From Synechococcales cyanobacterium (GTDB lineage Bacteria > Cyanobacteriota > Cyanobacteriia > CAKZMO01), in the NCBI GenBank assembly GCA_035285585.1, contig JAYKGU010000107.1:2864-66863 (forward strand): a stretch of 64,000 nucleotides of DNA, written 5' to 3'. The translations under genes and the position numbers were made by a program. The notes beneath the pieces were generated by a model, which worked only from the letters and a program-made list of their open reading frames with translations, did not search any database and was not told the DNA's origin. Each line of letters begins with the position of its first letter. The stretch's first letter is position 1. Of this stretch, positions 40,423-48,308 are shown one piece after another.

Positions 40423-43400
40423 CTAAAGATCAAGCTGTTGCTGCACCAGGTGGTAGTACAGGCCCCGACCGGCCATTAGCTCATCGTGGTTGCCCTTCTC
40501 CACCAGCACCCCCTGATCCAGCACCAGAATTTGATCGGCGTGGCGTACGGTGGACAGACGGTGGGCAATGATAAAGGTGGTGCGATCGCGGCTGATATGG
40601 GCCAAATTCTTTTGAAAACGGCGTTCTGACTCGGTATCCAGGGAACTGGTGGCTTCATCCAGAATGAGAATGCGAGGATTCCCCAGCAGCGCTCGGGCGA
40701 TGGCGATGCGCTGACGCTGCCCCCCCGACAGGGTAGATCCCCGCTCGCCCACGGCAGTGTGATAGCCCAGCGGCAGAGATTGGATGAATGGGTGAGCCTC
40801 CGCTACCTTCGCCGCTTCCACCGCATCTTCTAAGGAGAACTCTGAGCGGTAGAGCAGGATATTGTCGAGGATGGTGCCTGAGAACAAGAAACATTCCTGG
40901 GGAACAACGCCCAGTTGCGATCGCAAAGATGGCGGAGAGCTGTGGCGAATATCGTGGCCGTCAACCAGAACCCGGCCTTCATCGGGATGATACAGCCCTT
41001 CCAGAAGCTTTACCAGCGTGCTTTTCCCGGATCCACTCCGCCCCACTACCGCCGTGGTCTGGCCAGCCTTAACTTCAAAAGAAATGTTTTGTAATGTGTT
41101 GCGTTCTGCCTCGCTACTGTACCGAAATGTAATGTTTTCAAACGAAACCTGTCCCTGAATAGGTGGCATAACCATCATCTGCTGGCCAGGCGTTTCCTCT
41201 GGTCGGGTTTCAAACACATCATTGAGCCGCTCCACGGAAATTAACACTTCCTGGAGTTCGTCCCACAGCCCCGCCAGGGCAATAACCGGGCTGATGACAT
41301 ACCCAATCATCATATTGAAGGCCACAAACTGGCCGATGGTTAGCTCTCCCTGAATCACCAGGCCAGCCCCATACCAGAGCAGCAGCGTGCTTCCCAGGGT
41401 GTTGACCATGCCGTTAGCCGCCTGCAGGCCAATGCCAAACTTCTGTCCCCGAAACCGCATATTCAACTGCCGCGTCAGGGTTTCCTCCCACCGCCAGCGC
41501 AGCTCCCGTTCCGCCGCCGCCGATTTAATGGTATGAATGCCCGTCATCATTTCCACCAGCGCCGAATTTTGGTCCGCCGCTTCCTTGAAGATCTGTCGAG
41601 AAATCTTCCTCAAGAAAGGCGTTGACCCCAGGGTGAGCAGCATGATGGGGGGGATTAATCCCAACACCAACAGCGTCAAGCGCCAGTTGTAGTACAGCAT
41701 CAACCCCAGGTAGACAAATCCGGTGACGAAGTTAAGCCACGCCAGCACCACCTGGCCAATGAGGAAATGTTGAATCTTTTGGTTTTCCTGCACACGGGTG
41801 ATGATGTCACCGACGCGGCGCGACTCAAAAAACTGTAGCGGCAGCGCTACAGCGTGGCGGATAAACCCACTAATCAGGGTTAAATCTAACCGGTTGGCAA
41901 AATAGCCCAGCAAGTACTGGCGCACCGACGTCATGGCGATGCTCCAGATGCCAAACAAAATCAACCCCACGGCAAAAACATTCAGGGTTTCCAGACTTTT
42001 TTGCACCACCACCTGATCCAGAATGATTTGGGTAAACAGCGGGGTGACCAGCCCAAAAACTTGGATGAGTAAGGACACGGCAATCACCTGCAGCGCCAGG
42101 GAGCGATAGGGCAGCAGGGCACCCAGATATCGCCCCAGGCTGGCCTGGTTGACCTTCGTGTCATACAGATTTTCGGTGGGATCCAGCAAGAGTGCATATC
42201 CCGTCCAGTGGGAGAGGAAGGCTTGCCGGGAAAGCAACTGGCGGCCCAGGGCAGGATCGGCGATCGCCACCTGGTCGTGGCTGACCCGATACACGACCAC
42301 ATAGTGATTGCCCTGCCAGTGGGCAATCCAGGGGTTGGCCTGCTCGGCCATGCGCCCCAGGCTGGCCCGCACGGGACGGGCGTGGTAGCCCAGGCCCTCC
42401 GCCGCCTTCGCCAAACTCCGCAGGGATGCGCCCGATCGCCCCACATTGGCTTGCTCCCGCAGAAAGTTGAGGGGAAACCGCTTACCCCAATATTGGGAAA
42501 TCATGGCCAGACAGGCCGCCCCACAGTCGGAGGAGCTTTGTTGCTCAACCCAGGGGTATTGGTGCAGCCAGTCGAGGAACTTACGGTTGAGGGGTTTGGG
42601 GAATGTGGGTGCTGCCGCCGTCGGCTGGGTGATATTGGCCGGGGGCTGTACCACCAGCGGGGCGGGTGGTTTGTCAGGACGGAGATCGGTGGGCGGAAGG
42701 GTCGGGAGGGCCAGAGTTCCAGCAGGTTGGGAGGATGCCGACGGGCTAGCCTCCATCCCCGCTTTCCCTTCGCCCATTGCCAGCTCCCAATATTCGTCAG
42801 GGAGCTGGTACGCCATCACGTCGGTTTGGGCAAAGATGGGAGCCGGATAGTCAGCGCGATCGCCCCAACTATCGCCAACCTGTAGCGGCGGCACCAGCCC
42901 GTGGCCGTTTTCTGGCTGGCCCTGCACAATTCCCTGGCGCAGCCACCAGCGCCCACCCAGTTGACGGGCGTGGTCAGTGAGGTCTGTATGGGCAGGAATG
43001 AATTGCTCTGTAACGTAGGGGATCCACTGCTGAATCTGATGGCTGGATTGGCTGGCCAGATCTGTCAAACTTTTGAAGAAGACCAGCCGCTCCTGATGGC
43101 GGGCCTGGGTTTGCAGGTGGGCACTCAGGGCCGGGTATTGGTCTAGTAAAACTGTCAGAACCGCTTGGGGAATGAGGAGCAGACGAACCTCACTGGCCGC
43201 GATCGCCCGATAGGGAAGGCTGGTCGCGGCCAATAGGAAATCTGCCCCGAAGGTATCATCGGCCTGGAGCAACTGGGCCGTGACATCCCGCTGCCGCAGC
43301 CGACTGGGGCATAGAAGCCGCACCTGTCCTTGCACGATGAAGTACAGGGCTACCTCAGGAGGGCAGGGGGAGATGGGATGACCAAGGGGATAGTCTCTCA

Positions 43401-43548
43401 TCTGGATCCCAGGGGGGAGGTTTGCTGGAGAGCCAGACTGGTCCGGGTGTACCAAACTCATCAGCCGAGCAAGCGCCTGAGAAGCCTGGGTAACACCGGG
43501 GCCGCCAGAAAGGGGGGGCTTTTTTCTGACCCCGAGACTTGAATACAT
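40423..43548 (-). CDS. HetC-like peptidase-containing ABC exporter (cNMP-like domains + C39 + TMD + NBD)
   Basis: QQSSSDCGAACL (C39 Cys), HYVVVY, IADP; GRSGSGKST, LSGGQRQR, LDEATS; start uncertain. Confidence 0.9.
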   Translation of the reverse strand: MYSSLGVRKKPPLSGGPGVTQASQALARLMSLVHPDQSGSPANLPPGIQMRDYPLGHPISPCPPEVALYFIVQGQVRLLCPSRLRQRDVTAQLLQADDTFGADFLLAATSLPYRAIAASEVRLLLIPQAVLTVLLDQYPALSAHLQTQARHQERLVFFKSLTDLASQSSHQIQQWIPYVTEQFIPAHTDLTDHARQLGGRWWLRQGIVQGQPENGHGLVPPLQVGDSWGDRADYPAPIFAQTDVMAYQLPDEYWELAMGEGKAGMEASPSASSQPAGTLALPTLPPTDLRPDKPPAPLVVQPPANITQPTAAAPTFPKPLNRKFLDWLHQYPWVEQQSSSDCGAACLAMISQYWGKRFPLNFLREQANVGRSGASLRSLAKAAEGLGYHARPVRASLGRMAEQANPWIAHWQGNHYVVVYRVSHDQVAIADPALGRQLLSRQAFLSHWTGYALLLDPTENLYDTKVNQASLGRYLGALLPYRSLALQVIAVSLLIQVFGLVTPLFTQIILDQVVVQKSLETLNVFAVGLILFGIWSIAMTSVRQYLLGYFANRLDLTLISGFIRHAVALPLQFFESRRVGDIITRVQENQKIQHFLIGQVVLAWLNFVTGFVYLGLMLYYNWRLTLLVLGLIPPIMLLTLGSTPFLRKISRQIFKEAADQNSALVEMMTGIHTIKSAAAERELRWRWEETLTRQLNMRFRGQKFGIGLQAANGMVNTLGSTLLLWYGAGLVIQGELTIGQFVAFNMMIGYVISPVIALAGLWDELQEVLISVERLNDVFETRPEETPGQQMMVMPPIQGQVSFENITFRYSSEAERNTLQNISFEVKAGQTTAVVGRSGSGKSTLVKLLEGLYHPDEGRVLVDGHDIRHSSPPSLRSQLGVVPQECFLFSGTILDNILLYRSEFSLEDAVEAAKVAEAHPFIQSLPLGYHTAVGERGSTLSGGQRQRIAIARALLGNPRILILDEATSSLDTESERRFQKNLAHISRDRTTFIIAHRLSTVRHADQILVLDQGVLVEKGNHDELMAGRGLYYHLVQQQLDL

Positions 43549-44640
43549 AATGAGCCTCGAAAAGCAAGGGTTACATGGACTCAAACCTAACCTTTGACAG
43601 GGGAACTGTCCGTTCAAACAGGGGTAAGGAACCAGAGACGATGGACTGACCGCATTTATCGTGCCAAATGGTACGACAGAAGTCAGAGAAAAAGTTAAAA
43701 AAATTTGAAAAACAATTTTGGAAACTGCGGCAACTGAATACTGTGGTTGAAAAACGATTTTGTGGCCATCAATGGCAGCAGCTTCGTGGCGTTGTGGCCT
43801 TGAGGGGGGAGGACGATCGCCAATTTGCTCACAGAGATGAATGGCTTAATGTCCTGTATCTGCCTTTTTCAGGTGCGGCACTTACCTTATATTTAAGTAC
43901 CTTCTATTGCTTTATATCTTGCAAAGTGCCTGCAACCTTGAGCCGGTTGCTATATCGCAAGAATAAAGGCCACACTTTAAGAGCTTATGATATTTACTCA
44001 AACATTTCATTAACAAACCATAATTTCCTCCTAACCCGATCGCAATCTACATCGAGCCTGGGTTGCGAAAAGCAATCACCCCAGCCAGGTTTTTCAAGAG
44101 GCTTTACAGGCATAAACCGCACTGGCCGCAAGCTATTTACCCTACTTTAGTAGGTGCGTCGTTGACGGATGTTGGAACGATCTAAATCGTAAATTTGGCG
44201 ATCGCCTGTGACTCTGTGCGAATCACCTTTGCCGCAGGGTTCGACTAGATTGACCAGATGCCAATGCGGGGGATGTAGCTCACGAAACGCATCGGCTTAA
44301 TGCGTTTTCTCCATATTTTTGATCTTAATGAGAAAAATCTTAAATCATGAACTGTAGGAAAATCTATGTGCTTCATAGAATCTTTATGGAAAAAACAGCG
44401 GATTTACCAGGATTTGACAGTGAAATTACGGATCCCTAAATGGTGTAAGTTACGCATTAAGCTGCTCCTACCGTACGGACAAAGCTGGTGGAGGTACGGG
44501 TATCAAGCTGGCTTTAGCATGGGCAAGCTGCAAGGGAGCGCTGCCCAGTCTTCTCAACCGCTTTACCAGGGGTTGCGTTGCCAGACAGAACAGGTTTCTG
44601 CTTCAAGTGGGAAAAATTAACGGGAGAGCATTGTTGCAGA

Positions 44641-44716: not shown

Positions 44717-45048
44717 GTTGCAGATTCATGGATTTTTTATCCTCAGCGATCGCACTTTCACAGAAGTTTGATAAAACTCCCCTGGGCATGGACTAGTATT
44801 ATTACGGAAATATCCTGTATCTAAACGCACTTTTTAGCGATCGCAGCTTGAATGATGGGTGTCGGTGACCGAACTGCCAGGTGGGCTGCATAAAGTATCA
44901 ACTACAACTCGTCAATGAAAGTATGGCCTTTGCCCCCTGACTACAGCATTCGGGCAAAGCTAAGTTGCCTTGCGGCTTTGCAATACATCAAACTTGCCCA
45001 TCAAACTATTTAGAAAACCTTTAAATTGAACGACAGGAGTGTCCTTTG

Positions 45049-45882
45049 ATGATGTCCTTTCCGCCCTCCTTGAAGCAGGCCCTGTGGGTGTCTGCTTGTG
45101 CTTTATCGGCGACGCTGCCCGCTGCTCCTGCCCAGGCGATCGCCTTTTCTGAATCCCAGAGCGAAATTTTCTTTGTAAACTTTAGTCACGCTCCCTTTTC
45201 TACTGCCACTTCAACTGATACCAATACCTTCACCTTTACCGATAACGACCTGGCGATCGCCAACGCTGAAGCCAACGCCATTTTCCCCGACGCCAGCGTT
45301 GTCGGTAGCTTGCCCATCATCGCCGCTAATCGTCTTTTTAATGAAGCCTTTGCCCCCGGTGGCACATCCCTGGCTACCGCCTCCAGTGAAGCATCGGTTG
45401 TGGGGGATTTTTGGGTAGACGTTGCCTCCGAACCAACGGTCTTCTCCTTTGACTTTATTGGATTCCTGGACGTTTTTGGGGTCGTCGATTCATCCCCCAC
45501 CGAGCAGGCCAGCGCATCCGCAACTATCTTTTGGGGGATCTTCGATCAAACAGAAGAACTGCCGGTTTTACTCGATATCTTTGATCTGAAGGCGGGGCTG
45601 GAAACCTTCAGCGATCGCGACTTTCTCTCTTTGCAAACAACCGAAAACATCGACCTGCTACCCGACTTAACGGCCCTTGATACCGACTTCGGCGGCACTG
45701 CTGAAAGCGCCCGTGTGAATTTTGCGGGTAGCTACCAGCGCACCTTCACCACCTCCCGCTCTCTCCGCCTGGTGGAGTTTAAGCAGGGGCAGGCGACGGC
45801 CAGTGTGCCAGAACCATCCCTGATGCTGGCAATGGGGATAGGGGGTGTGGCGCTGCTGCGATCGCGGCGGCGGACAAAGTAA
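45049..45882 (+). CDS. PEP-CTERM sorting-domain surface protein
   Basis: Signal peptide ending APAQA; acidic Ser/Thr-rich body; VPEPS + TM + RSRRRTK; AGGAG RBS. Confidence 0.92.
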   Translation: MMSFPPSLKQALWVSACALSATLPAAPAQAIAFSESQSEIFFVNFSHAPFSTATSTDTNTFTFTDNDLAIANAEANAIFPDASVVGSLPIIAANRLFNEAFAPGGTSLATASSEASVVGDFWVDVASEPTVFSFDFIGFLDVFGVVDSSPTEQASASATIFWGIFDQTEELPVLLDIFDLKAGLETFSDRDFLSLQTTENIDLLPDLTALDTDFGGTAESARVNFAGSYQRTFTTSRSLRLVEFKQGQATASVPEPSLMLAMGIGGVALLRSRRRTK

Positions 45883-45894
45883 GCCGGTATTCTC

Positions 45895-45924
45895 TTGACA
45901 CGGAGAGAAGCCGTCTGTTATGAA
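45895..45924 (+). promoter_or_regulatory. Putative sigma70-type promoter for the aroF leader
   Basis: Perfect TTGACA at 45895-45900, 18-nt spacer, TG-n-TATGAA at 45916-45924. Confidence 0.55.
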
Positions 45925-46026
45925 GGTGGAGAGGCCGTATCGGCTTTTCCACTTTCGGTTAGTTCCTCAAGGCGCGCATCCCGTGCGTTTCGTTATTGCC
46001 CCTAACTATTGCCAGAGCGTTTCAGT

Positions 46027-46077
46027 ATGCGACGATTTTTCTTTTGGTTTTGGTTTATCCCGGTTCACCAGAGGTGA
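46027..46077 (+). CDS. Putative attenuator leader peptide 1, MRRFFFWFWFIPVHQR
   Basis: ATG CGA CGA TTT TTC TTT TGG TTT TGG TTT ATC CCG GTT CAC CAG AGG TGA; seven consecutive Phe/Trp codons. Confidence 0.75.
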   Translation: MRRFFFWFWFIPVHQR

Positions 46078-46105
46078 CGGCTATTTGCCATACCCCTTCT
46101 GAGTG

Positions 46106-46134
46106 AACCGCAGGCTGCCAAACCTGCGGTTTTT
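46106..46134 (+). terminator. Intrinsic terminator of attenuator 1
   Basis: AACCGCAGG-ctgccaaa-CCTGCGGTT-TTT; 5' arm can pair alternatively with 46061-46074. Confidence 0.8.
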
Positions 46135-46204
46135 AATTATCTAGCCTGTTGAATTCGCGTCTGGCGATCGCCCCTGACCCTTTTTTCAAACGACAAAACA
46201 AGCC

Positions 46205-46276
46205 ATGCCTGCATCGCTTATCTGCCCATCCTTTTTTAGCTTCTTCTTTTTTTGGCCCCTGACCAGTTCTGGGTAA
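46205..46276 (+). CDS. Putative attenuator leader peptide 2, MPASLICPSFFSFFFFWPLTSSG
   Basis: Codons TTT TTT AGC TTC TTC TTT TTT TGG at 46232-46255 (6 Phe + 1 Trp). Confidence 0.72.
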   Translation: MPASLICPSFFSFFFFWPLTSSG

Positions 46277-46300
46277 GAAGATGCTGCCATGCCATCGACG

Positions 46301-46332
46301 AACCCGGAGCTGAACCCAGTTCCGGGTTTTTT
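46301..46332 (+). terminator. Intrinsic terminator of attenuator 2
   Basis: AACCCGGAGCTG-aacc-CAGTTCCGGGTT-TTTT; 5' arm can pair alternatively with CAGTTCTGGGT (46264-46274). Confidence 0.8.
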
Positions 46333-46416
46333 AATGACTGCGCCGCTGTGTTCGACCTCCGTCCCATCTCAGTTCGTCAATTTCTAGCAAACTCAACCCA
46401 CACAAGGAGATTTCCC

Positions 46417-47271
46417 ATGCAGAATGCTAAACTCACCGCCCAGGCCCAGGCTGACCACCGCACGGTTATCCACCTATCCGATCGAGTCACGGTGGGTGGC
46501 ACCGACCTGCTGATAGTCGGTGGCCCTTGCTCAGTGGAAAGTCAGGAACAAATGGTTACCGTTGCCGAACGTCTGGCCGGGTCGGTCCATGCCCTGCGCG
46601 GTGGCGTCTTCAAGCCCCGCACGTCACCATACTCTTTCCAGGGACTGGGCCAGGCAGGGCTAGAAATTTTAGACGCGGTGCGCCGCCGCTACCATGTGCC
46701 GGTGATTACGGAGGTGATGGCGATTGCCCAAATCGAGGCGATCGCTCACCATGCAGACGTGCTGCAAATCGGTAGCCGCAACATGCAAAACTTTGACCTG
46801 CTGAAGGCGGTAGGCGCAATTCAAAAGCCCGTGGTGCTCAAGCGGGGGCTGGCCGCTACCCTGGAGGAATTCGTGATGGCCGCCGAATACATCCTCAGCC
46901 ATGGCAATCCCAACGTCATCCTTTGTGAACGGGGCATCCGCAGCTTTGATTCCTTCACTCGCAACGTGCTAGATCTGGGAGCGGTGGTGGCCCTTAAACA
47001 AATCACTCACCTGCCGGTGATCGTTGACCCCAGCCATGCGGTGGGTAAGCGAGAGCTGGTACCCGATCTGGCGCGGGCCGCAATCGCCTGTGGTGCAGAT
47101 GGCCTCATGATCGAATGTCACCCCGTTCCCGAAGCGTCCGTCTCCGATGCCCGTCAGGCCCTATCCCTGGAGGACATGGTTGCCCTGGTGCAGAGCCTGC
47201 GTCCCATTGCAGCAGCGGTAGGGCGATCGCTGCCCATCCTTCAGGGATTCGAAGTTGCCTGTCGAAGTTAG
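46417..47271 (+). CDS. aroF: DAHP synthase type I-beta, short form (284 aa)
   Basis: [45 protein letters not shown]; AAGGAG RBS at 46404-46409 supports the ATG at 46417. Confidence 0.93.
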
Positions 47272-47438: not shown

Positions 47439-48308
47439 CTAATCTTGCCCCGCTTTGAGTGAGAACCCTCCGCGCTGTACCCGAAGGGCTAGTGTCGGGA
47501 GGATGTCAATCCACTGCTTCAGCCTTCTGAATGGGCAGGTTCTCGATGGTTTTTCTTCTGGAGGAGGGGATAACTCTGTAAGTGGGCTACTGGCTGTAAT
47601 GGCCTTGGTAGTTGAAGCCAGTGGGGACTCATTAGCCGATGGCACGATAGCTTTGTCTTTGAGTTCCGCTTCGGCCATGGCGATCGCTGCCTCAGCCGCA
47701 GGTAAAGCCCGTGCTGCATTGGCCATACTCATTCGATTGATGTAAGCTCGCAGGTACCTTAAACGGAGTTCTGCACTATCGGTCATGCGGCTTAAAAATG
47801 GCAGGTCAGATTCTGCCATAAATCGAATCGCCAGCATTGGAATGGGGCTGCGTAGGGGGCGAAATATTGGATTATGTAACCCAGGACTGTTACTACGCCC
47901 ATGAAATTCACCAATCATCAGCCCTTGATCCACAAATAAAGGCTTCAAATTCTGCTGTACAACATCGATTAAATCGCCTGCATTCTGGGTTTCCACATCG
48001 GGGAAAATTAGCAGGATGGATTTATAGACTGACAGCGGCCCGGTTTTGGGTTCCAATTCTAAAAATGTATGACAATACGTTGCTACTAGAGCAGTGAGTT
48101 CGTCAACAGAGCCTCCGTTTGCAGGCACAGCACTAAAATAAACCGTGTTTTGCTGTAGCGCCCGTGGGACGAACGGACAAACTGGACCAGGCCGGCCTAA
48201 TTCAGGATGGGGATTTCCAAGAAAATCACGAACCCATTTTTCTGTTTCATAAAGGCAAGGATGATAAGAAGAACTTTGCTTTAGATCAGCCGATGTCAAG
48301 AGTTGCAT
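47439..48308 (-). CDS. DUF6875-like protein (possible heme-dependent hydroxylase)
   Basis: WVRDFLGNPHPELGRPGPVCPFV, GLMIGEFH, GLHNPIFRPLRSPIPMLAIRFM; family recognised from memory. Confidence 0.65.
   Translation of the reverse strand: MQLLTSADLKQSSSYHPCLYETEKWVRDFLGNPHPELGRPGPVCPFVPRALQQNTVYFSAVPANGGSVDELTALVATYCHTFLELEPKTGPLSVYKSILLIFPDVETQNAGDLIDVVQQNLKPLFVDQGLMIGEFHGRSNSPGLHNPIFRPLRSPIPMLAIRFMAESDLPFLSRMTDSAELRLRYLRAYINRMSMANAARALPAAEAAIAMAEAELKDKAIVPSANESPLASTTKAITASSPLTELSPPPEEKPSRTCPFRRLKQWIDILPTLALRVQRGGFSLKAGQD

Follow-up and report, generated by a model that had tools for sequence, protein, structure and literature searches.

The aroR leader peptide of Corynebacterium glutamicum (Phe-Tyr-Phe) is reported to attenuate aroF in a ribosome-mediated manner (Neshat et al. 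2014, as summarized in the review PMC11802643). The uORFC-13-1 motif of Acholeplasma aroF consists of a candidate upstream open reading frame (uORF), with at least one Phe codon, immediately upstream of an intrinsic terminator, and attenuation has been proposed for it (Brewer et al. 2021, PMC8632094). The leader of Salmonella mgtCBR carries a pair of brief open reading frames (ORFs), each of which is expected to control both alternative stem-loops and the entry of transcription into the coding region (Lee and Groisman 2012, PMC3641672). For cyanobacteria, a 2016 paper describes reliable attenuation data as lacking (PMC4833913). The subject of the present analysis is the leader of an aroF-type DAHP synthase gene in a stretch of 64,000 nt from a Synechococcales cyanobacterium (contig JAYKGU010000107.1, positions 2,864 to 66,863 of the forward strand), referred to below as the window. 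An earlier, sequence-only reading of the window had placed two complete attenuator-like units in this leader. Comparison with other genomes makes it highly probable that aroF is subject to ribosome-mediated transcription attenuation at these two units in series.

Layout and conservation of the two units

The features of the leader, and of the gene that it precedes, are as follows.

45895-45924, + strand: predicted promoter as a whole, from sequence, matching the −35/extended −10 layout of the family
45895-45900, + strand: −35 element TTGACA, read from the sequence
45916-45924, + strand: extended −10 element TG-T-TATGAA, with an 18-nt spacer to the −35 element, read from the sequence
46027-46077, + strand: uORF1, peptide MRRFFFWFWFIPVHQR, stop codon TGA, from the sequence and the ORF list
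46036-46056, + strand: control codons of uORF1, five Phe and two Trp, seven aromatic codons in succession
46061-46110, + strand: predicted antiterminator 1, arm 46061-46074 pairing with 46096-46110, a small apical hairpin lying between the arms
46105-46134, + strand: predicted intrinsic terminator 1, 10-bp stem (46105-46132), 8-nt loop, T5 at 46130-46134
46205-46276, + strand: uORF2, peptide MPASLICPSFFSFFFFWPLTSSG, stop codon TAA, from the sequence and the ORF list
46232-46255, + strand: control codons of uORF2, six Phe and one Trp, seven of the eight codons being aromatic
46264-46312, + strand: predicted antiterminator 2, arm 46264-46274 pairing with 46302-46312
46300-46332, + strand: predicted intrinsic terminator 2, 13 pairs (46300-46312 with 46317-46329), 4-nt loop, T6 at 46327-46332
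46404-46409, + strand: Shine-Dalgarno sequence AAGGAG of aroF, from sequence
46417-47271, + strand: aroF-type DAHP synthase gene, 284 amino acids, start codon ATG at 46417

Most of this had been read from the letters alone before, and it stands. Both uORFs are borne out by the sequence together with the ORF list, the promoter is present, and the hairpins ending at 46134 and 46332 are retained with their T-runs; folded alone, terminator 1 has −16.6 kcal/mol (z −4.3) and terminator 2 −22.4 kcal/mol (z −6.1). The antiterminators fold as they had been drawn, at −25.2 kcal/mol (z −5.5) for unit 1 and −24.6 kcal/mol (z −4.8) for unit 2, none of 200 shuffles being as good in either case, and their helices covary. 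The start of aroF, previously put at 46418, was corrected to the ATG at 46417. A simple terminator scanner listed terminator 1 and missed terminator 2.

In unit 1 the 5′ arm of the antiterminator is formed by the last codons of uORF1 and ends one base before the stop codon, and the 3′ arm overlaps the 5′ arm of terminator 1. In unit 2 the 5′ arm consists of the closing codons of uORF2 together with the first base of the stop, and the 3′ arm is the 5′ arm of terminator 2 itself. Although the units have unrelated arm sequences, the stop codon is found at the arm in both. Each hairpin is rich in G+C and lies, with its T-run, approximately 50 nt past the uORF stop.

The first comparison involved 41 related genomes and 18 loci (L001-L018) encoding orthologs of the window's enzyme (67-100% identity), the shorter of two paralogs. 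Aromatic uORFs were filtered at first for at least five aromatic residues in eight. Both are found upstream of the short-form ortholog in 16 of the 18 loci, and the remaining two (L010 and L018) have one each; upstream of the long paralog no aromatic uORF is found in any of 11 loci (L019 and L021-L030, the truncated L020 having been left out). The weaker uORF1 of L010 and L072 (MARPAPRFYGWFIKVHLE), which falls below this filter, was recovered by covariance model (the genome of L010 is G018). A hairpin and T-run lie 46-56 nt after the uORF stop in the related loci, the exception being unit 1 of L008 at +69.

A covariance model was built for each unit and then run against genomes. In the 6.67-Mb genome from which the window derives, each model has exactly one match, and neither has any other meaningful match there. 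In a class sample of 151 evenly drawn genomes, representing 80 genera, unit 1 is found in 54 genomes (36 genera) and unit 2 in 48 (34 genera); 47 genomes carry both, on the same contig and strand, while seven carry unit 1 only and one carries unit 2 only. A DAHP synthase gene is located directly downstream of the units in all 29 loci fetched from this sample (L035-L063). When named loci encoding the ortholog were examined, unit 1 was present in 78 of 80 and unit 2 likewise; the two misses (L127 and L138) are cut off by contig ends, from which they begin at a distance of 48 and 103 nt, so that the paired arrangement first read in the window is conserved in 78 of the 78 loci possessing upstream sequence. 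The carriers include many members of Nostoc, N. punctiforme NIES-2108, Trichodesmium erythraeum IMS101, Calothrix, Fischerella, Scytonema, and Mastigocoleus, as well as Microcoleus, Coleofasciculus, Oculatella, Phormidesmis, Leptolyngbyaceae, and Elainellaceae. In T. erythraeum IMS101 (L134) the converted coordinates on the minus strand of NC_008312.1 are about 7,001,635-7,001,740 for unit 1 and about 7,001,476-7,001,579 for unit 2. In the matter of chance, conservation in other genomes is decisive: as judged from sequence, the units are conserved across many filamentous cyanobacteria and are not a chance pattern.

The genomes with unit 1 only all belong to one family (f21), where they constitute seven of the eight sampled members (G036, G059, G079, G096, G111, G138, and G150); approximately 78 nt separate the T-run of unit 1 from the gene in these genomes (loci L018 and L057). 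The genome with unit 2 only is G133.

A loose scan of the window's genome was made for short, ATG-only ORFs rich in one residue and having a hairpin with a T-run at a distance of 25-80 nt downstream, the thresholds being arbitrary. It returned 111 candidates, among which the aroF units are, by eye, alone in possessing a dense aromatic run. With seven of the other candidates inspected singly, no second convincing leader-peptide attenuator was found in this genome: in six of the seven there is overlap with a stop-to-stop frame that is 534 nt or longer, and downstream of the remaining one (C88) no ORF of at least 100 amino acids is found within 500 nt.

Promoters were sought with a strict pattern (TTGRY, N14-17, TGnTAnnnT) in a range of up to 330 nt upstream of unit 1. 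The pattern is present in 67 of 76 loci, for the most part at a fixed distance, in agreement with the TTGACA/extended −10 promoter recognized earlier in the window; it occurs in none of the 76 inter-unit spacers, and by this pattern no promoter was found between the units or before aroF. The genus of the window fails the strict pattern, its −10 element (TATGAA) having a final A in place of the T of the family motif, and aligns by eye; most of L001-L018 can likewise be aligned by eye to the TTGACn/TGnTAnnn layout. The spacer between the end of unit 1 and the start of the unit-2 model is short (median 43.5 nt, range 37-160), and in most lineages a second promoter could hardly be accommodated there. 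A conserved promoter before unit 1 and none between the units suggest that the units are read in series, one predicted promoter driving a leader of approximately 490 nt that contains both.

Two observations touch upon the origin of the tandem. In three loci (L091:1002-1106, L077:1016-1121, and L075:870-965; E 0.001-0.005) the model of unit 1 gives weak matches at the positions of unit 2, and both units share a spacing of 21 nt from aromatic run to stop and approximately 50 nt from stop to T-run. Together these hint that the tandem arose by duplication of a unit.

Coding signature and conserved helices

Coding properties were counted in 78 named loci per unit, except where another denominator is given. 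The start codon of uORF1 is ATG in 76, an in-frame stop is found at a fixed model position in 74, and the frame is 18 codons long in 61; the stop codon is TGA in 73 of 76 loci. uORF2 starts with ATG in 70 loci, GTG in four, and TTG in four, its stop is at the fixed model position in 75, and it is 20 codons long in 41. These frames encode 65 distinct uORF1 peptides and 71 distinct uORF2 peptides, and synonymous codons are in use for the aromatic residues: TTT/TTC counts are 226/24 in unit 1 and 249/63 in unit 2, and TAT/TAC counts are 95/67 and 107/92, the unit-1 set including three weak cross-hit rows and lacking three rows lost to the start-finding heuristic. The median number of aromatic residues per peptide is six for uORF1 and eight for uORF2, as compared with a genome background of 3.6% F, 2.5% Y, and 1.4% W; typical Nostoc leader peptides are MLNTNSYFYFWFRVVHRE and MTYFSSWFYGFYFWPRVSSG. 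The distance from the last aromatic codon to the stop is 21 nt in 56 of 73 loci for unit 1 and in 72 of 78 for unit 2. This signature is strong, if indirect, evidence that the uORFs are translated.

Phe, Tyr, and Trp are all present in 76 of the uORF1 peptides and 77 of those of uORF2. The sequence-only reading had inferred that there is no sensing of Tyr, which holds for the genus of the window, where Tyr codons are absent, and not for the family at large. This genus (the window's genome and L002/L064) is the sole lineage among the 78 loci without Tyr in both peptides; in Phormidesmis priestleyi (L130) Tyr is missing from uORF1 only. The Tyr-less leaders may represent a lineage-specific change in sensing.

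The coding signature bears upon a different explanation, according to which the switches are real but set by the binding of some other factor to the U-rich or arm region, be it a protein (as with TRAP), uncharged tRNA (as in a T-box), or a small ligand (as in a riboswitch), the frames being incidental. An incidental frame would not keep its ATG and its fixed stop at the frequencies just given, nor does incidence fit with the persistence of F/Y/W codons through 65 and 71 different peptides with synonymous variation, or with a stop exactly at the antiterminator arm in both units despite unrelated arm sequences. A cmscan of 45700-46600 against Rfam 15 (E ≤ 10) gave six matches, all of them far below the gathering scores and to unrelated families (best E 0.22, a miRNA model), with no leader family and no T-box among them. 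What speaks for a ribosome-independent switch is the rarity of Shine-Dalgarno-like motifs before the uORFs, the existence of invariant stretches (GGTTCAC, G-TGA, and CCGGG) that could be binding sites, and the extra local helices proposed by RNAalifold. On balance we regard this explanation as improbable, ribosome-mediated attenuation being preferred.

The N-terminal parts of both peptides vary and the aromatic run is kept. At the other end, the conserved C-terminal residues (VH.. in uORF1 and ..SG in uORF2) are those whose codons form the antiterminator arms, and in uORF2 the residue before Gly varies (S/T/P) with pairing maintained by compensatory changes. Since the C-terminal codons are also the RNA arms, and pairing is kept despite the S/T/P change, the comparison points to selection on the uORF C-termini at the level of RNA rather than of peptide. 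The same facts argue against the view that the uORFs encode functional small aromatic peptides with terminators of their own, whose position before aroF is not regulatory; so do the unconserved N-terminal parts, the occurrence of the units before this gene alone, and the want of a promoter, by the pattern used, between the units or before aroF. Conserved lengths (18 codons in 61 of 78 loci for uORF1 and 20 codons in 41 of 78 for uORF2) and the shared C-terminal motifs would suit functional peptides, an explanation to which we nevertheless assign very little probability in comparison with control of aroF by attenuation.

Pairing was assessed in MAFFT alignments of 17 sequences per unit (A1 for unit 1 and A2 for unit 2), with register-shifted (slid) pairings as controls, and in two larger alignments (A3 and A4) of the model matches in the 80 named loci, which were fitted to the terminator alone. 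A3 has 79 distinct rows; A3 and A4 include three and one weak stray rows, respectively, which can only lower the pairing figures. In A1, antiterminator 1 is paired in 94.1% of cells as against at most 51% for slid pairings, with compensatory change in three pairs, and terminator 1 in 95.9% as against at most 58%, with compensatory change in four pairs (10 cells). For unit 2 (A2), the values are 90.0% versus at most 60% for the antiterminator (compensatory in three pairs, 16 cells) and 94.7% versus at most 61% for the terminator (three pairs, 13 cells). The larger alignments give 94.5% versus at most 53% for antiterminator 1 (A3; compensatory in five pairs, 31 cells) and 91.9% versus at most 49% for antiterminator 2 (A4; four pairs, 23 cells). 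Because the sequences are related and not independent, the case rests on the slid controls and the compensatory pairs and not on the shuffle counts. Both terminators were also predicted independently by RNAalifold, which was run blind. The sequence-only reading had suggested that homologs be searched for conserved aromatic uORFs and covarying stems; both are found, and the aromatic run is conserved in 78 loci.

Where uORF1 ends, RNAalifold further proposes a GUUCAC/GUGAAU hairpin of 6 bp, in which 46063-46068 pair with 46074-46079 across the stop codon. It is invariant and without compensatory changes, and only four of its pairs are possible in the window; a role as pause hairpin or anti-antiterminator is conceivable. 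G-TGA is invariant in all 17 unit-1 sequences. In unit 2 the program proposes a 4-bp UUGG/CCGG helix, again without compensatory changes and consisting mostly of G-U pairs in the window.

The covariation also addresses the possibility that the hairpins do not switch at all and are constitutive terminators, serving as insulators against read-through from the PEP-CTERM gene upstream, or elements of mRNA stability. Both terminators are strong, that of unit 2 dominates at equilibrium, and the upstream gene lies on the same strand and ends at 45882, all of which would agree with this. However, constitutive terminators would silence aroF, since the conserved promoter is located upstream of both units; moreover, the units follow aroF across genomes, the upstream gene not being the conserved part, and the antiterminator arms covary, which an insulator does not need. 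Constitutive termination is therefore very improbable in our estimation, and the units are considered below as attenuators.

The proposed ribosome-set switch

In the mechanism proposed here, a single promoter would give rise to the leader of approximately 490 nt, in which two ribosome-mediated attenuators would precede the monocistronic gene of a core-only DAHP synthase. When charged Phe-, Tyr-, and Trp-tRNAs are plentiful, the translating ribosome would reach the uORF stop and cover the antiterminator arm, whereupon the terminator would form and the polymerase would stop. When an aromatic aminoacyl-tRNA is scarce, the ribosome would stall within the run, leaving the arm free to capture the emerging 5′ arm of the terminator, and read-through would result. 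As both terminators must be passed, read-through would equal the product of two probabilities, and such a serial product would provide a low basal level and a steeper response. Of the "steeper, AND-like" response in the sequence-only reading, the steepness is retained in the form of this product; an AND gate of different signals it is not, the same kind of run being present in both units. Translation of the uORFs would presumably be coupled to transcription, the terminators active in vivo, and the whole responsive to aromatic amino acids.

The geometry was examined by folding, with the ribosome footprint assumed, approximately, to extend from −15 to +12 or +9. Transcripts cut at the terminator loop ("snapshots") served as a stand-in for the moment of decision, which is an assumption about kinetics. 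For a ribosome whose A site is at the stop codon, the antiterminator 5′ arm of either unit falls within a footprint of −15 to +12. In snapshots of the window the antiterminator forms without a ribosome, or with a ribosome on any of the aromatic codons (apart from one or two at the end of the unit-1 run), and is lost with a ribosome on the stop. Across the family, at least six antiterminator pairs form without a ribosome in 70 of 73 loci for unit 1 and 63 of 78 for unit 2; with a ribosome on aromatic codons at least two codons before the end of the run, the same is true of 56-71 of 60-73 loci for unit 1 and of 69-74 of 72-78 for unit 2. At equilibrium, the minimum free energy structure of unit 1 contains the terminator in 71 of 73 loci with a ribosome on the stop, as against 16-25 of 72-73, and 20 of 60, with a ribosome stalled early. 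The median energies of the antiterminator segment and the terminator are −30.2 versus −19.2 kcal/mol in unit 1 and −20.2 versus −18.2 kcal/mol in unit 2. Folding with footprints, as the sequence-only reading had proposed, is consistent with a ribosome-set switch in unit 1 both at equilibrium and in snapshots; for unit 2 it is so in the snapshots and not at equilibrium. With no well-supported 1:2 helix to intervene, the untranslated leader is predicted from these folds to read through, the opposite of trpL.

Several points weigh against serial attenuation by ribosomes. With the ribosome on the stop, the family snapshots retain the antiterminator in 0 of 73 loci for unit 1 and 0 of 78 for unit 2, figures that follow by construction from masking an arm within the footprint and describe geometry rather than behavior. 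Masking of the arm sets in before the stop is reached in unit 1: when the ribosome occupies the last aromatic codon, 14 of 73 loci keep at least six pairs, and when it occupies the second-last, where masking is partial, 60 of 73 do; the control codons at the end of this run are thus not all well placed. The unit-2 terminator persists at equilibrium in 76 of 78 loci when no ribosome is placed and in 53-76 of 72-78 when one is stalled, and in the window it is present in all ribosome states. This dominance means that unit 2 can switch only kinetically; kinetic action is usual for attenuators. Shine-Dalgarno-like motifs precede the uORF starts in only 3 of 76 loci (unit 1) and 8 of 78 (unit 2), and initiation would have to be independent of such motifs. 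The related genomes are non-independent samples. Lastly, the switch presupposes that transcription and translation in cyanobacteria are coupled tightly enough for it.

The gene, its surroundings, and related systems

The product of the window's aroF passes the cut-offs of the curated families NF006421 (390.8 bits; cut-off 335) and TIGR01361 (350.5 bits; cut-off 267.75), and matches Pfam PF00793 with 261.6 bits (cut-off 25.5; 7.5e-78). Models of KDO8P synthase score below their own cut-offs. The protein aligns with residues 73-334 of PDB entry 1rzm, lacking the first 72 or so residues of that chain, and end to end with the 262-residue chain of 1zco; it aligns with the catalytic barrel both of the Thermotoga maritima-type enzyme that has an N-terminal regulatory domain (1rzm/3pg9) and of core-only forms (1zco, 1vs1, and the truncated 3pg8), and the alignment contains no N-terminal extension of approximately 70 residues equivalent to 1rzm 1-72. 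On sequence criteria it is a type I-beta DAHP synthase consisting of the catalytic core only. The window's genome (6.67 Mb, 318 contigs), whose nearest named relative is an Elainellaceae metagenome-assembled genome at 92% protein identity, encodes two DAHP synthase paralogs. The second (L144:1220-2281, 353 amino acids; NF009933, 694 bits) is 52% identical to the short form over the core and possesses the N-terminal extension, aligning with residues 1-335 of 1rzm. The covariance models of both units have no match at its locus, where uORFs were not scanned separately. In the Thermotoga DAHP synthase the N-terminal domain confers feedback inhibition by Tyr and Phe, and core-only forms are not known to be regulated. 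We infer that the attenuators may supply the control that the short paralog lacks allosterically.

An operon partner for aroF was sought and rejected, there being no consistent downstream gene across 68 carrier loci with full flanks: 31 have their first downstream ORF of at least 90 amino acids on the minus strand, 30 have it on the plus strand, and seven have none. In the window the following features adjoin the leader and the gene.

45046-45882, + strand: gene of a PEP-CTERM sorting-domain protein, flanking the leader upstream on the same strand
45925-45956, + strand: strong stem-loop directly after the predicted −10 element, at the likely 5′ end of the leader
47439-48308, − strand: gene of a DUF6875 protein, downstream of aroF on the opposite strand

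With these neighbors, aroF stands alone in the window. The stem-loop at 45925-45956 was not seen to be conserved in those upstream regions of relatives that were compared by eye, and is possibly a 5′ stabilizer or the terminator of the upstream gene. It gave a sub-threshold match to mir-965 at 45919-45959 (20.7 bits against a gathering score of 43), which is spurious. Farther upstream, the translation of an ORF on the minus strand (40423-43617, 1064 amino acids) contains the ABC-transporter motifs GSGKST and LSGGQ, motifs only having been considered.

If serial attenuation of aroF is real, ribosomes in Cyanobacteria would follow RNA polymerase closely enough to set the choice of terminator, and the leader would offer a testable handle on transcription-translation coupling in this phylum. 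To our knowledge, Cyanobacteria lack Rho. Serial attenuation would also account for the control, at the first step into the shikimate pathway, of a DAHP synthase paralog devoid of a regulatory domain, would constitute an unusually clean natural example of two like attenuators in series, and could provide a compact native sensor of aromatic amino acid supply for cyanobacterial engineering. Experiments are feasible, since the carriers include the tractable or well-studied Nostoc punctiforme and Trichodesmium erythraeum IMS101. The broadest formulation, for which we consider the chances about even, is that this is the first recognized family of classical leader-peptide attenuators in Cyanobacteria, present in approximately one-third of the sampled genomes and acting as a multiplicative filter of two stages, which responds to all three aromatic amino acids, replaces the missing allosteric domain, and reads through by default.

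The full-text literature that was searched, with survey supplements and most subscription journals outside its scope, contains no description of the tandem aroF element in cyanobacteria, and none was known to the sequence-only reading. What we describe is apparently an undescribed, conserved cyanobacterial RNA element comprising two like leader-peptide attenuators in series, which in most lineages would sense all three aromatic amino acids. Like the trpL and pheL leaders of E. coli (summarized in the review PMC11802643), each unit has a short uORF with a run of codons for end products of the pathway, an intrinsic terminator before the structural gene, and a mutually exclusive antiterminator whose 5′ arm would be masked by a ribosome at the stop codon; stalling on the control codons is proposed here, too, to favor read-through. 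The trpL/pheL geometry claimed earlier for the window is accordingly upheld in its uORF, its terminator, and its arm under the stop-codon footprint, and not in respect of a 1:2 helix, for which, unlike trpL, the aroF leader has small invariant helices only and no well-supported candidate. It differs from both E. coli leaders in combining three amino acids in one peptide, in possessing two full units in series, in belonging to a different phylum, and in having no sequence or structure match to the leader families of Rfam.

The remaining systems were compared by description. The aroR leader of C. glutamicum resembles that of the window in preceding a DAHP synthase gene and in having mixed aromatic codons, and differs from it, according to the review PMC11802643, in being a single unit without a Trp codon and in its actinobacterial host. 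The uORFC-13-1 motif likewise has one unit, and according to PMC8632094 is confined to Acholeplasma and environmental sequences. The mgtCBR leader shares with that of aroF the presence of two uORF-governed attenuators within one long leader (PMC3641672). By comparison with mgtCBR, each aroF unit has a canonical terminator made up of a hairpin and a U-tract. The two ORFs of mgtCBR reportedly read different signals, whereas the aroF leader presents the same kind of aromatic run in both of its units.

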